A DNA stretch of 64,000 nt from an uncultured delta proteobacterium (GTDB lineage: Bacteria > Myxococcota_A > Polyangia > Polyangiales > Polyangiaceae): the NCBI GenBank assembly GCA_963850305.1, contig CAWKKR010000007.1, forward strand, positions 640,001 through 704,000. Direction: 5' to 3'. Under the pieces are notes generated by a model. That model was not told the DNA's origin. It worked only from the letters and a program-made list of their open reading frames with translations, and made no database searches. Positions 23,448 through 28,237 of the stretch are shown here, one piece after another (positions within the stretch are counted from its first letter, which is position 1; every line of letters begins with the position of its first letter). The position numbers and the translations under genes are program-made.

Positions 23448-25844
23448 TTACTCCGCGGCGACGGAGCGCGTGCTGGCCGGCAGAGTCACACCCTCCGGGG
23501 CTTTCGCGTATTCGCGGATCTGGACCTCCCCGGATTCGAGCTGACGGAAGCTCGGATAGAGCTCCGGGTATCCTCGATCGAACCGGGGGCCTTTGAAGCC
23601 CCTCCGGATCGCGGGCATCACGCAGAAGAAACCGGAGAAGGATTCCGCGAGGCGTGCGAGTTTTCGTTCGGTGGGCGTGAGATTGACGCCCTCCTCGAGA
23701 CGACGCTTCTCCTCTTCTTCGTGCGGCGAAGCGTAAGCGGTGATGAGACGCAGCTTCTGCGCCTCGAAGGTCATGGACTCGAACCGGAAGATGGACAAGA
23801 GATAGAGGCCCGACTCGGGCGTCATCTCCGGCAGCCGCGCGATGACCGAGAGCGGCTCGGCCATCGTCGCGAGATAGTCATCCCTGCCTTCGGCGATGAC
23901 GTGGTGCGTGACCATCCAGAGCTCGAAGTAATTCCTCGCCGGGATCGTCGCCTTCCAGCGCCCGAGATAGTGGGGCTCGAGCCGCGCCACGAGGAGCATG
24001 CTGAACCGCCCCAGAAGACGGCTTAGCGCTCGGAGATCACGGCGTCCAAACCGCTCGCGCACCCGCGCGACGACATCGGGAAGCGACTCGAACGTGACCC
24101 GCTCTTCCCTGGCGAGCATGGGCAAGAACTCGTCCCAGAACCGACGGACGTCTTCACCCGTCAGATCCCCGCCTTCGATCAGGGCAAGATCCATGGGATC
24201 TTCGCGACGCGCAACCGAGCGCTGCATCAGCACGCTGAGCTTCGAGCGGCGTCGCCAGAAGATCGCGTCGAAGTGCCATTGCTCGGGCTCGGGGAGAAAG
24301 TCTTCCCAGAAGTGCGGATCGAACCCGCGCGGCGGTGCGTGCGGACCGACGTAGGTGCGCTTCCACCAGTCCCCGGTGTCGAAGTGCTCCTTCACGCTGA
24401 CGGATTCGAGCATGATCGTGCTCACGCGCGCGACCTTCGGCGGCTCGGGGTGGCTCTCGAGCGCTTCGCTCTTCAAGAAATCGAGCCCGTGCCCCTCGAG
24501 GATGCGCTGCAAAAGTACGTCGGCGCCCGGTCGCGAGCCATAGCTGTACGGATCCCACGGACCGACGATGCTGCTGATGAGGCTCGTCGGGTTCATGCCG
24601 AACGTCTCGTAGATGACGGCTTGATCCCCTCGCGGATGGTGCGGCGCGACGAACTTGGGCGGCGATTTCGGATGAGTCGGCGAGAAGTGGAAGACGAGCT
24701 CGTGCCACTCCTTCTCGTCCCAGCTCACCTCGGCGAGCAGCGACATCTTCACGTCCGGCGAGGTGTGCGGCGGAAACACCCCGTACGGGTGGAGCCAGCG
24801 GAACGGGTGGAGCAGCCGGAAGAACCTCAGCGGAAGCTGGAGGATCTCCGGGAGCCGGTACCACGCGGACCAGAGGTGCCAGCTCTGCCCGATCCAGCTG
24901 TTGAACAGGAACGCGAAGCAGCACGACACGGTGTGGACGACGACGAACGCGTTCACGACGACCGGCGCGCCCGCGGCGAACATTCCGGCGATGTGAAGGT
25001 GCGTCGGCGTGACGTTGTCGAGCAGGGGAATGCACGCGGCGATGGTGAGCACGCTGAAGTACCCGAAGCTCCCCATCAAGTGGATGCCGATCATGAGGAG
25101 CGTCGTTACCGCGGCGCACACGACGCTGAGTGGGCCCGGCACGAACACGAAGAAGGGCGCGGGGATCTCCGCGAAGAACATGAACAGGACGGCTGGCTTC
25201 AGAAGCTTCGTCGGGAGCTTTTGCGCGTACCACCCGAGCGGAGAGGGCAGCGGCTGGGACAGCAAGAAACCTTTCAGGTACGAGAGATCCTTCGACGTGC
25301 TGCCGAGGAATTTCTGTTTGCCGAATCCGAACATGACGCGGAAGACGAGCAGCCGGTACGCCCACGCGAGCGCGGGAGCCGGAGCGGCGACGGCGCTCAG
25401 ATTCGGCAGGGAGTGTGTCGGAGGGATGAACAGCGCCAGGATGACGCACTCGAACATCAGGCAGTCCCACGGGAAGATCAGGCCGATCGCCAGATCGAGG
25501 GACAGGTAGCAGACGTAACAGACGAGAATCGCCCAGAACGAGAACGCGCCCCCGTAAACCAGCGCGGCGGCGGCCAGGAGCCCGGTGCACGCGAGCGCGC
25601 GCAGCATGGCGTCGCTGTCGTTCACCCAGAGCAGCGTCGGAAAATAAACGAAACGCCGCCAGGTGGGGAAATCTCGACGGATCTTCCGGAGTCGAAGCGC
25701 GACGGGTAAGCCGCCGCCGCGGCCGGAGCCCAGCACGATCTGGCCCGCGAGCGACGCGAAGGAGATGAGCAGCACGAGCCCGAGCGCCCGCGTGAACAGT
25801 CCCCACACGAGCTCGGGGCGCAGCGACGCCAGCCAGTCGAACAT
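23448..25844 (-). CDS. Lipase maturation factor (LMF1)-family membrane protein with long C-terminal extension (paralogue 1)
   Basis: LF.R.LGLV.LISF.SL..Q, FPTLLW, PWDCLMFE, LLVFRVMFGFGK.K, QPLPSPLGWY, YGVFP and PPKFVAPHHPRGD LMF motifs. Confidence 0.82.
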   Translation of the reverse strand: MFDWLASLRPELVWGLFTRALGLVLLISFASLAGQIVLGSGRGGGLPVALRLRKIRRDFPTWRRFVYFPTLLWVNDSDAMLRALACTGLLAAAALVYGGAFSFWAILVCYVCYLSLDLAIGLIFPWDCLMFECVILALFIPPTHSLPNLSAVAAPAPALAWAYRLLVFRVMFGFGKQKFLGSTSKDLSYLKGFLLSQPLPSPLGWYAQKLPTKLLKPAVLFMFFAEIPAPFFVFVPGPLSVVCAAVTTLLMIGIHLMGSFGYFSVLTIAACIPLLDNVTPTHLHIAGMFAAGAPVVVNAFVVVHTVSCCFAFLFNSWIGQSWHLWSAWYRLPEILQLPLRFFRLLHPFRWLHPYGVFPPHTSPDVKMSLLAEVSWDEKEWHELVFHFSPTHPKSPPKFVAPHHPRGDQAVIYETFGMNPTSLISSIVGPWDPYSYGSRPGADVLLQRILEGHGLDFLKSEALESHPEPPKVARVSTIMLESVSVKEHFDTGDWWKRTYVGPHAPPRGFDPHFWEDFLPEPEQWHFDAIFWRRRSKLSVLMQRSVARREDPMDLALIEGGDLTGEDVRRFWDEFLPMLAREERVTFESLPDVVARVRERFGRRDLRALSRLLGRFSMLLVARLEPHYLGRWKATIPARNYFELWMVTHHVIAEGRDDYLATMAEPLSVIARLPEMTPESGLYLLSIFRFESMTFEAQKLRLITAYASPHEEEEKRRLEEGVNLTPTERKLARLAESFSGFFCVMPAIRRGFKGPRFDRGYPELYPSFRQLESGEVQIREYAKAPEGVTLPASTRSVAAE

Positions 25845-25948: not shown

Positions 25949-26488
25949 CTACCTATGGACGGAGACGTGGACGTGCGACGCGTCCTCGTAGAAGACCCAG
26001 TCGAACCCCGCCTCGACCGCGAGCCGCGCGAGTCGACCGAGGCGCTTCGAGTCCACGTCGGAGGTCGTGATGTCGGCGGCGCGGCCCTCGTAGTGGATGC
26101 TGTTCGTGCCGTGCTCGTGGAGTTCGTCCCAGGCTTCCGTCACTCGCAGTCGCAGGTCCGGCCACTCTCGCTCGACGAGCGGCGCGAGTCTTCGGAGCTT
26201 GGCGCGAAGTCGGGGCGTCATCATGCGGTCCGCGCCCGTGCCTTCCTCGTCCTTGAAGACGATGTCCGGCGAATCGCACCGCACCAGCCGCGAATATTCG
26301 ACGCTCCCGCGTTCCACCCGTTCCGAGATGGCGCCGACCGCGCCGATCTCTCCCGTGTCGGGAACGCGCTCGCCGAGTCGAAGAGGACGCTCCGACGCTT
26401 CCCATCGGGATAGCCCGACGGTACCCGGGAAGTTGTCGGAACAGGCGATCGCCAGAAGGGCGATCACGACGAGGGTCTTCTGCGACAT
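25949..26488 (-). CDS. Hedgehog N-terminal signalling domain homologue (Hh/DD-peptidase fold), predicted lipoprotein
   Basis: PDIVFKDEEGTGADRMMT, WPDLRLRVTEAWDE, HYEGRAADITTSD and LARLAVEAGFDWVFYE...HVHVSV closely match animal Hh-N; signal MSQKTLVVIALLAIAC; alternative start 26521. Confidence 0.92.
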   Translation of the reverse strand: MSQKTLVVIALLAIACSDNFPGTVGLSRWEASERPLRLGERVPDTGEIGAVGAISERVERGSVEYSRLVRCDSPDIVFKDEEGTGADRMMTPRLRAKLRRLAPLVEREWPDLRLRVTEAWDELHEHGTNSIHYEGRAADITTSDVDSKRLGRLARLAVEAGFDWVFYEDASHVHVSVHR

Positions 26489-26649
26489 CGCGGCGTCGGG
26501 GCGAAGTGCACCCGCAGCCATGGATCGTCGCAGGGTACGCGGAGCCCCGGCAAGAAAACGACGGCGGCGACGGCGCCGGACCTCCGCAATGACGAACCCA
26601 GCCCGTCATCGCGGGAGCAAGGGCGCTTTCGACCCCGCGATCTCCGAGG

Positions 26650-26901
26650 TCAGTGCGTCTTTTTGGGCATGTCCGCGTTCGCGATTCGGTCTTTGGCCTT
26701 CGGAGGCATGGCGTTCACGAACGAGTCGATCTCGCGTTCGGCTTGTTCCTTATGAAAGCCGTAGCGGTGCTGAAGGCGCCCGAGGAGCATGTCCTTCTTG
26801 CCAGCGATCGTCTCGAGATCGTCGTCCGTGAGCTTGCCCCAGTGGCTCCGGATCTTTCCCTTCAACTCTTTCCAATTACCTTGCAACGCGTCCCAGTTCA
26901 T
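26650..26901 (-). CDS. CsbD-family stress protein
   Basis: MNWDALQGNWKELKGKIRSHWGKLTDDDL...G.LQ.RYG; AAGGAG-like RBS upstream. Confidence 0.9.
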   Translation of the reverse strand: MNWDALQGNWKELKGKIRSHWGKLTDDDLETIAGKKDMLLGRLQHRYGFHKEQAEREIDSFVNAMPPKAKDRIANADMPKKTH

Positions 26902-27169
26902 GACGGCAAACGCTCCTTCCGACGATGGGCCGCCGGGCACGGCCGGCCGACGTCTTCTCCGACGAGGTGCAGCCGGCGTGCCAGTGTTTCGGAGCAAACT
27001 CCCGCGGAAATCGCCCTGCCGTGCGTGGCAAAATGTCGCCGGGCGTGTCCCTTCGCTCGGGCACGCCTTTCGGACCCGGCGTTCAGCCATTGCCAAATCG
27101 AGACGTCGGGCTCGAAGTTCGGGATATGCTCGCGCCCCCTTTGCCGAGCGCCCCGGGGAATGAGCTTCA

Positions 27170-28237
27170 ATGAACTTCCGCAAGGGCTTGGGATTGGTCG
27201 CCGTGATCGCCACGGCGATCGCGGGCGGAGATCTCGAGTGCAGTCACGTCCAGCAGACGGCCGAGCAGCAGCATGGCGGCGAGCTCTACGAGCGGATGTG
27301 CTCGGTGTGTCACGGTCGTGCGGGTGAAGGGTACAAGGCCGATCAGGCTCCCGCCCTCCGCAACGCCGCGTTCCTCGGAACCGTGACGGACGAGTATCTG
27401 AGGGCCGCAATCACGAACGGCCGCCACGGCACGACGATGTCCGCCTGGGCGCGCTGGCACGGTGGGCCACTGACTCAGCCGGACATAGAGTCCGTCGTCT
27501 CTTTCATTCACACGTGGGATCCGTCCGCGCGCCCGGCCCTCGATCAGGCGCCTTCACGCGGAGATGCGCTAAGGGGGGCAACGACATTCGCGAGCCAGTG
27601 TGCGAAGTGTCACGGCGCTCGCGGGACGGGCGGACCCAACGTGAACATCGGCAATCCGCAGCTCCTCTCGATGGCGAGCAACGGCTTCCTGCGCTACGCG
27701 ATTCGTTACGGCCGGCAAGGGACGGCCATGCCCGCGTTCGAGCCGACGCTCGGCGACGCGAAGATCGAAGACCTGCTCGCGTTCCTTCGCAACCTTCAGG
27801 CGACGGCCGCTCCCCCTCCGCCGGCTCTCCCGTCGCGTCCACCGCCGATCCCGCTCGGTCCCGTGCCGCTCAATCCCAAGGGTCCGGAGCCCGTCGGCTT
27901 TCACCCGAGTCCGGCGACCACGCCTGCGGAGGTCATTCACGCACAGCTAGAGAGGGGCGCGAAGATGGCGCTTCTCGATGCGCGTGCGCCGTCGGACTAC
28001 ACGGTGCAGCATATCGCTGGGGCGGTCAGCGTTCCCTTCTACGACCCCGGTCCGTACCTCGCGTTGCTGCCCAAGGATGCCTGGCTCGTCTGTTACTGCG
28101 CGTGCCCTCACGCGGAGTCCGGGCAACTCGCACAGAGGCTCGTCGCAAGCGGATTTTCGAAAGTCACCGTTCTGAACGAGGGCCTCGGCTTCTGGCGCTC
28201 CAAAGGCTTCCCCACCCACGCGGGCACGGCGCCCTGA
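27170..28237 (+). CDS. Exported di-heme c-type cytochrome fused to a rhodanese-like domain
   Basis: Signal peptide; CSVCH...MSAW and CAKCH...MPAF heme/Met motifs; LLDAR...HIAGAVSVP and VCYCACPH rhodanese motifs. Confidence 0.85.
   Translation: MNFRKGLGLVAVIATAIAGGDLECSHVQQTAEQQHGGELYERMCSVCHGRAGEGYKADQAPALRNAAFLGTVTDEYLRAAITNGRHGTTMSAWARWHGGPLTQPDIESVVSFIHTWDPSARPALDQAPSRGDALRGATTFASQCAKCHGARGTGGPNVNIGNPQLLSMASNGFLRYAIRYGRQGTAMPAFEPTLGDAKIEDLLAFLRNLQATAAPPPPALPSRPPPIPLGPVPLNPKGPEPVGFHPSPATTPAEVIHAQLERGAKMALLDARAPSDYTVQHIAGAVSVPFYDPGPYLALLPKDAWLVCYCACPHAESGQLAQRLVASGFSKVTVLNEGLGFWRSKGFPTHAGTAP

Follow-up and report, generated by a model that had tools for sequence, protein, structure and literature searches.

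A stand-alone bacterial Hedgehog-domain protein with a predicted lipoprotein signal in part of one myxobacterial family

Bacterial proteins with a Hedgehog signaling domain have been described as bacHh or BacHh, members of a Hh/DD-peptidase family (Roelink, 2018, PMC6027127; Jagers and Roelink, 2021, PMC8052667), and their function was called unknown (PMC6027127). The 2021 supplement already includes RYZ03269.1, a protein from Myxococcales represented by its core (residues 109-212), and a 149-residue stand-alone entry, PYS76727.1 (46-149). The conservation described in the text excludes the N-terminal arm that binds Ptch1 and heparan, and the terms "lipoprotein", "signal peptide" and "Myxococc" are absent from the main text (PMC8052667). 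The same source describes the M15/LAS peptidases as being without the Ca site of the Hh type (PMC8052667); further background is found in PMC3482391 and PMC2362128. No report of a lipoprotein bacHh was found in the literature searched, with most subscription journals and bioRxiv supplements outside reach. The bacHh domain is published, a Myxococcales core included (PMC8052667), whereas the stand-alone lipoprotein form with a family-wide, putatively lipidated Cys arm was not found in the literature surveyed; the earlier note, too, stated that it knew of no characterized free-standing, lipid-anchored member in a myxobacterium.

The window, the whole stretch of 64,000 nucleotides analyzed here, contains such a gene (Table 1). 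Pfam HH_signal matches residues 30-176 of the encoded protein (E 3.4e-52, 176.8 bits, cut-off 22.1), far ahead of Peptidase_M15_3 (E 1.7e-5 only), and all 25 matches at E<=0.001 in a sequence search of the PDB are Hedgehog proteins (best 2e-45). Against SHH chain 6e1h_C, the ungapped stretch from P74 to V177 has 66 identical residues in 104 columns, as counted by eye on the printed alignment, in agreement with the figure in the earlier note. An AlphaFold2 model built from a 106-row alignment has a mean pLDDT of 89.7 (52-59 for residues 1-30), and all 38 Foldseek matches of this model at E<=0.001 are Hh, the best at a predicted rmsd of 1.0 A and the first four 51-54% identical to the protein across 148-150 columns of structural alignment; the next matches are the LAS peptidoglycan enzymes LysECD7, MepA, LdcB and DD-peptidase (E 0.02-0.07). 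The Hh-N assignment made in the earlier note, and the superposition on Hedgehog structures that it called for (about 1 A rmsd), are thus borne out, and an ordinary M15 DD-peptidase is ruled out by the difference between the two Pfam E-values and by the all-Hh top Foldseek matches. The protein resembles the M15/LAS peptidases (Zn DD-carboxypeptidase 1lbu, LdcB/VanY, MepA, LysECD7 endolysin) in its LAS fold, its Zn ligands and the weak Pfam M15_3 match, but differs from them in an identity of 11-20% and a TM-score <0.5, and the bond that they cleave cannot be carried over. The nearest ESM Atlas cluster, a lead only, is of the HH_signal type, with 112 members that are mostly bacterial and Myxococcota the commonest.

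Table 1. Features at the bacHh lipoprotein locus (positions in the window)
Feature	Position	Strand	Basis and remarks
Stand-alone bacterial Hedgehog-N (bacHh) lipoprotein gene, 179 aa	25949..26488	-	ORF translation, Pfam; single copy in genome
Type II signal peptide (predicted), residues 1-15: K4, hydrophobic stretch 6-15, then A-I-A ahead of Cys	26444..26488	-	Sequence; relaxed lipobox rule
Cys16, predicted lipidated +1 residue	26441..26443	-	27 residues before conserved Pro43; 25 in most animal Hh
20-residue tether C16-P35 with family LS[KR] motif	26384..26443	-	Low model confidence over most of tether
Hh-N / LAS-fold domain L36-V177	25958..26383	-	Pfam, SHH alignment, AlphaFold2 model, Foldseek, residue conservation
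LMF1-family membrane protein, downstream same-strand neighbor, 104 bp off	23448..25844	-	Pfam; elsewhere near gene only in L050 and L051
Short ORF between bacHh gene and cytochrome gene	26650-26940	-	Also near gene in L050 and L051
c-type cytochrome (two cytochrome domains) and rhodanese, divergent neighbor	27170..28237	+	Pfam; near bacHh gene in 5/36 loci

As had been proposed, the domain stands alone. The protein ends in ...HVHVSVHR followed by a TAG stop, three residues past HxHxS, and no Pfam match to a Hint domain was found downstream of the Hh-N domain in the 179-aa protein. A split or truncated Hedgehog is ruled out, the reading frames of 43 of 47 loci stopping <=15 residues past the last motif. 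An alternative in-frame ATG at 26521 would give a 190-aa form with 11 more residues in the signal peptide and an identical mature protein. Prediction of a homodimer from residues 16-179 with Zn and Ca gave a score of 0.00, which carries no weight for or against a dimer.

Regarding the metal sites, the Zn ligands H132, D139 and H174 correspond to SHH H140, D147 and H182, and the putative catalytic residues E168, H126 and H172 to SHH E176, H134 and H180, so that the set named in the earlier note is intact; the two bacHh Zn motifs, H132-x6-D139 and H172-x-H174, are present in the myxobacterial lipoprotein with E168 as the putative E177-equivalent general base. The Ca-site residues E81, E82, D87, T117, E118 and D121 are also present (SHH D95, T125, E126 and D129 being equivalent to D87, T117, E118 and D121), and L123 replaces SHH D131. 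The residues listed earlier are kept, Leu at D131 included, and the labels "E90, E91" have to be corrected as mouse numbering: the acidic pair E81/E82 corresponds to E89/E90 when numbered like the other SHH residues, with an offset based on SHH chain 6e1h_C, which we take to start at residue 24. The protein shares with bacHh the domain of ~145 aa that is >50% identical to ShhN, the Zn motifs, the E177 equivalent, Ca-site residues and the end right after HxHxSV; bacHh is further defined by Ca-coordinating residues all identical to those of Shh, of which five of six carboxylates are found here.

Of the matches listed, 118/119 family members and 104/106 fused bacHhs have all seven putative catalytic residues named in PMC4102407, but no more than 26/39 eukaryote-type rows do; five of the Ca carboxylates are retained by 118 of the 119 family members. 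All six carboxylates, with Asp at the D131 position, were detected in 13/119 family members, 34/106 fused bacHhs and 14/39 eukaryote-type rows among the matches listed; since no more than a minority of the latter two groups has it either, the full set of six is not family-defining in practice. PMC4102407 places mouse D132 next to an exposed, weakly bound second Ca ion that was proposed as a regulatory switch. With D131 lying by the proposed switch ion and mostly lost, Ca regulation is less sure than Ca binding, and the description of the protein as Ca-regulated in the earlier note is weakened. Glu at SHH position 133 (E125 here) is found, among the matches listed, in 119/119 family members and 106/106 fused bacHhs and in 6/39 eukaryote-type rows, and the lipoproteins have residues of their own, C71 in 72% and Arg at the D131 position in 45%.

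The signal peptide passes the relaxed lipobox rule with Ala at -3, and thus departs from the textbook lipobox, given as L-[AST]-[GA]-C in PMC3222651. An n-region, an h-region and a lipobox Cys are present under the relaxed rule, and the genome encodes Lgt (three loci), LspA and Lnt. As an aside, lspA, lnt and one lgt (a match in two pieces in different frames) lie within 12 kb (G000:C5:306363-318650), and two further lgt are on C8. The Cys lies 23-34 residues ahead of the conserved Pro43 in 91 of 94 aligned bacterial rows, at 42 in one, and is lacking in two, these rows being the query and 93 of 119 listed relatives, hand-picked, with the 26 omitted having mostly truncated or over-long starts; with all 120 listed rows kept, 84 pass the lipobox rule and 110 have a Cys arm as scored by an anchor script. 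Among the genome loci examined, 43 of 47 have the stand-alone form with Cys 23-33 residues before the conserved Pro. The suggestion that the signal is of the lipoprotein type holds as a trait of the family, the Cys at a set spacing in 91/94 rows and 43/47 loci arguing against chance.

In 12 animal Hh the distance from Cys to Pro is 21-26 residues. The lipoprotein is like animal Hedgehog (SHH, DHH, IHH; PF01085) in having this N-terminal Cys, similarly spaced, behind a signal peptide, in the core identity, predicted fold, Zn site and five of the six Ca carboxylates, but unlike it has no Hint/Hog domain with cholesterol transfer and no cholesterol. The lipidation chemistry also differs, with Lgt and Lnt acting in bacteria and Hhat on animal Hedgehog. 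Among the matches listed, the arms are of similar length (108 of the 110 in the family have 16-22 residues, the 41 from animals 14-21), but the animal arm consists of CGPGRG and a Cardin-Weintraub basic run and the lipoprotein arm differs in sequence, except for a likeness in Nematostella Hh1: the LS[KR] motif was detected in 89/110 family arms, 1/41 animal arms and 0/97 fused-bacHh linkers among the matches listed. Fused bacHhs start at the L36 equivalent and their upstream linkers are unrelated, which argues that the Cys arm is an addition of the lipoprotein family. It is in the stand-alone position behind a lipoprotein signal and Cys arm, the large family and the mostly lost D131 equivalent that the protein is unlike published bacHh as described from its first dozen examples.

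Lys at +2 was found in none of the 84 rule-passing members among the matches listed, and the 179-aa protein has Gly at +7; neither of the M. xanthus lipoprotein sorting signals given in PMC3222651 is therefore present, these rules being those of a different myxobacterial family. Two loci, L109 and L111 (genomes G442 and G439), and the proteins P0011 and P0020 retain both the signal and the LS[KR] motif of the arm but are without the lipobox Cys. The motif may thus serve a role apart from lipid anchoring, and with two members of the genus lacking the Cys the lipid anchor is not obligatory.

The gene is native to the bacterium. Its GC3 is 0.83 against a genome median of 0.81, its codon adaptation is at the 86th percentile among 3000 genes, it sits on a 1.13-Mb contig, and its flanking genes are identical in kind at two loci in other genomes (L050 and L051). 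Contamination or a chimera, which the earlier note had argued against from codon usage, is ruled out by these properties together with orthologues in 64 of 383 genomes of the source's taxonomic family. The 64 positive genomes belong to 18 of 89 genera and include all seven genomes of the source's genus. In the order-wide search, which used a stricter first look than the search within the family, the protein was detected in 27 of 190 other genomes of the same family and in none of the other families of the order but one, where a single genome of 15 encodes a long form that lacks the Cys. Examination of 47 of the 65 positive genomes gave 43 stand-alone forms with Cys, two without Cys in which the arm motif is kept, and two long proteins. 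In a search restricted to proteins of 98-314 aa, the best 120 of 1000 matches, the query aside, are 56-75% identical to it and nearly all ~180 aa long; three of those listed have an NCBI organism name and all three are Polyangiaceae. These single-copy proteins occur in a part of one myxobacterial family and are under purifying selection, with dN/dS of 0.08-0.19 (median 0.13; 11 close pairs among 573 equal-length pairs). NCBIfam has no family for the protein, and tblastn against a phage collection gave no match; among the sequencing runs listed, none of RNA contains it and a single DNA run does, at a share of 0.07.

Two other Hh-N architectures were observed in Myxococcota. In one genome of the same family the lipoprotein form is replaced by a 1127-aa protein (L043, L056, P0122) with two Hh-N domains together with Amidase_2, glucosaminidase, PG_binding_1 and DUF2272. 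A second, divergent Hh-N family of ~550-650 aa, mostly in one other family of genomes, was found at L006-L016 (for example L006, 1054-2703; L007, 1048-2733; L013, 1087-2757; all on the minus strand); its layout comprises a signal ending in Cys, a ZU5-like region (Pfam ZU5 no better than E 0.1 in L006), an Hh-N with inserts in which the Zn motifs are kept, and a further C-terminal region.

Regarding the genomic setting, neighbors in 36 loci (up to 6 kb of flank) are stable within groups of related genomes and different between groups. No conserved operon or receptor partner was found in these loci, the commonest neighbor cluster occurring in 8/36 and tracking related genomes; the comparison used a rough gene caller, which overlooked the Hh gene itself in four loci, and BLAST clusters mostly without names. 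The LMF1-family neighbor is restricted to L050 and L051 and is thus not a family-wide partner; it is a protein of 798 aa with a long C-terminal part without Pfam match. The short ORF upstream is one that we take to resemble CsbD/YjbJ. A scan for Sigma-70 promoters at the gene found none, and terminator-like matches were at chance level. The gene looks like a stably inherited one without a dedicated partner, rather than a mobile cassette or part of a ligand-receptor operon.

Among the best 120 of 629 longer relatives, 14 are animal-type Hh with Hint and 106 are without Hint. Another Pfam family was detected in 36 of these 106, and 32 of the 36, among the matches listed, pair the Hh-N with a hydrolase, transpeptidase or binding domain for peptidoglycan (Amidase_2/3, phage lysozyme, GH25, glucosaminidase, pesticin-type lysozyme, VanY, YkuD_2, PG_binding_1), the 32 being related sequences and not independent events and the other 70 of 106 having no second recognized domain. 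Together with the catalytic set complete in 118/119 family members, these partners make a membrane-tethered Zn peptidase acting on peptidoglycan peptides the most likely reading, which we hold to be probable as a whole, lipidation, location, catalysis and substrate each being inferred. A bacHh member would have become a stand-alone lipoprotein in one sub-lineage of Polyangiaceae type and then been inherited mostly vertically. After export of the precursor, Lgt would attach a lipid to Cys16, LspA would make the cut and Lnt would add the N-acyl group, and the mature triacylated protein would hang from a membrane, probably the outer one, on its flexible 20-residue tether. Its LAS-fold domain, with Zn on H132/D139/H174, E168 as general base and at least one stabilizing Ca ion, may then hydrolyze a peptide bond in stem peptides of peptidoglycan or their fragments, from the cell's own wall or from a scavenged or prey wall.

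Some points temper this. No peptidase activity or substrate of any bacHh was found in the literature surveyed, which counts against a peptidase; animal Hh keeps the same site yet acts as a ligand, so that conservation alone is no proof of catalysis; and no cell-wall gene recurs as a neighbor in the 36 lipoprotein loci, where clusters are mostly without names. The same catalytic conservation would be expected of a lipid-anchored Zn peptidase whose targets are proteins or peptides of the surface or matrix, which it might, for instance, process or shed at the cell surface. The lipoproteins form, with two other rows, a clade of their own (96/86) with their own residues and no peptidoglycan partner domain, and some M. 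xanthus lipoproteins are placed in the matrix (PMC3222651). However, the nearest relatives with a recognizable partner are overwhelmingly fused to peptidoglycan enzymes and the cleft residues of the family match those of the fused forms, and we regard a substrate other than peptidoglycan as possible though unlikely. Alternatively, the domain may be a pseudo-peptidase, a non-catalytic module whose Zn- and Ca-dependent binding holds peptidoglycan, a glycan or a partner protein at the membrane. Animal Hh binds through this cleft, the "pseudo-active site" view is reviewed in PMC6027127, and the fused domain usually lies at the very end of the hydrolase, a possible place for a targeting domain. The general base and both stacking histidines are nevertheless kept more strictly in bacteria than in animals, beyond the apparent needs of binding, which makes this alternative an unlikely one.

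The earlier note had left the choice between a Zn peptidase and a lipid-tethered signal. As a signal, the protein would carry a lipid and act from cell to cell through a receptor, RND/Patched-like or of another kind, in a bacterial equivalent of Hedgehog signaling, and the build of the protein is indeed that of processed animal HhN (predicted lipidated N-terminal Cys, similar arm length, a basic arm residue and nothing past the domain); the gene is single-copy and kept in 7/7 genomes of the genus, and the genome encodes MMPL-type proteins, two of them with weak matches to the Patched model. This model also matches 4 of 14 control genomes, though, and MMPL 13 of 14, no receptor-like neighbor recurs in the 36 loci, a convincing squalene or oxidosqualene cyclase was not found (one weak match of 27.8 bits inside a 1736-aa frame, in a genome 94.8% complete), and strict catalytic conservation suits an enzyme. 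The protein is probably an enzyme and not a signal: the peptidase branch is favored by fusion partners and near-invariant catalytic residues, and we consider signaling highly doubtful. Other fusions were seen among bacHhs, to a three-TM YLATT domain (P0337, P0345, P0352), sulfatase, a TolB-like propeller, dockerin/Ig and CARDB.

Regarding the relation to animal Hedgehog, a quick tree of 153 rows and a careful tree of 64 rows place the 39 or 18 eukaryote-type rows, respectively, on one side of a branch. The root of the quick tree is not trusted, its outgroup consisting of long branches of divergent Myxococcota, one of them on the wrong side; the careful tree covers 149 columns of a subsampled set, with a bootstrap that is not fully settled, and hedglings, sponge and choanoflagellate sequences are missing from both trees. 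In the careful tree the 16 sampled lipoproteins group with two other rows (96/86) and are not joined to animal Hh, and between bacteria and canonical Hh lie a Paulinella protein, four proteins that are Hh-like but have no Cys arm, and three more rows. AU tests of the lipoproteins as sister to canonical Hh (p 0.16) or to all 18 eukaryote-type rows (p 0.43) did not reject either placement, the tested group including the two nested rows, which were added after the tree was seen. Canonical animal Hh is on average 49.2% identical to the lipoproteins and 51.1% identical to fused bacHhs, and the best match of 31 of 39 eukaryote-type rows is a fused bacHh. The relevance to the origin of Hedgehog that the earlier note had claimed is weakened by these results, with fused bacHhs as close or slightly closer to animal Hh and no lipoprotein-animal join in the best trees.

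The arms were compared separately. On the family arm profile, Nematostella Hh1 scores 16.4 bits (family median 20.6), with 1 of 200 shuffles as high, and it is the sole animal arm of 41 with the LS[KR] motif; two of the 41 beat their own shuffles, this one and one at 8.2 bits, and the Pocillopora arm scores 0.2, the cnidarians in the test being two named and one row that groups with them, since a homologue search started from Nematostella Hh1 yielded mainly fish Ihh. With 41 animal arms tried, the single match of Nematostella Hh1 is weak evidence.

The Hedgehog-like lipid tip of the bacHh lipoproteins is, as we infer, most likely convergent with the palmitoylated tip of animal Hedgehog. Convergence is the better explanation because lipobox-like starts are common in the genome (~539 of 5119 genes, rough caller), bacHh rows outside the lipoprotein clade (P0281, P0282) also have a signal and Cys start, and arm-less rows lie in between. 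Under a second account the myxobacterial lipoproteins would be the closest living model of animal Hedgehog's ancestral gene, arm included, and the palmitoylated Cys would be the bacterial lipobox Cys. Such an origin would fit the overlap in Cys spacing (23-28 in the lipoproteins, 21-26 in animals), the Nematostella Hh1 arm and the two AU tests; with a single matching arm among 41, Pocillopora at 0.2, fused bacHhs slightly closer and arm-less rows between the groups in the best tree, it is quite unlikely. Equally doubtful is its corollary that an early animal acquired the signal peptide, Cys, arm and domain in a single piece, with just a Hint domain left to be added. The reverse transfer, of an animal Hedgehog gene into a myxobacterium with the animal signal read as a lipobox, could draw on animal signal peptides that end small-small-Cys like a lipobox, on the aligned Cys columns and on the fit of the Nematostella Hh1 arm to the family profile. 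The family has bacterial traits, however, namely the invariant Glu at SHH 133 (6/39 in eukaryote-type rows) and the lack of two inserted residues behind E47, its mean identity is higher to fused bacHhs (55.6%) than to animal Hh, and animal and bacterial rows fall on opposite sides of a branch; this direction is extremely improbable.

Whether the Hedgehog domain can be a real peptidase has long been argued, and the lipoproteins provide a clean natural test, since their Hh-N is small, stand-alone and naturally bounded, is joined to no second enzyme domain and comes in many variants with a near-invariant catalytic set. The substrate of the lipoprotein would reveal the job of the ancestral domain. 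A bacterial lineage has also reached the build of processed Hedgehog, with a predicted lipid-Cys, a short arm and the domain, which if convergent is a tidy example and if homologous would explain the source of Hedgehog palmitoylation. The lipid-Cys arm is thus a handle on two questions, Hedgehog catalysis and the origin of the N-terminal lipid.

Outside cnidarians and bilaterians, a Paulinella micropora protein (P0327) combines FG-GAP repeats with an Hh-N domain (E 2e-43), for which transfer or contamination is possible. Four proteins from metagenomes or sequencing runs (P0330, P0292, P0318, P0326) have a signal peptide leading straight into Hh-N with no Cys arm; P0330 has a Hint domain, P0292 two LDL-receptor A repeats and Hint, and P0318 and P0326 have LDL-A. 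All four take positions immediately outside canonical animal Hh, and they may be informative about the assembly of Hh.
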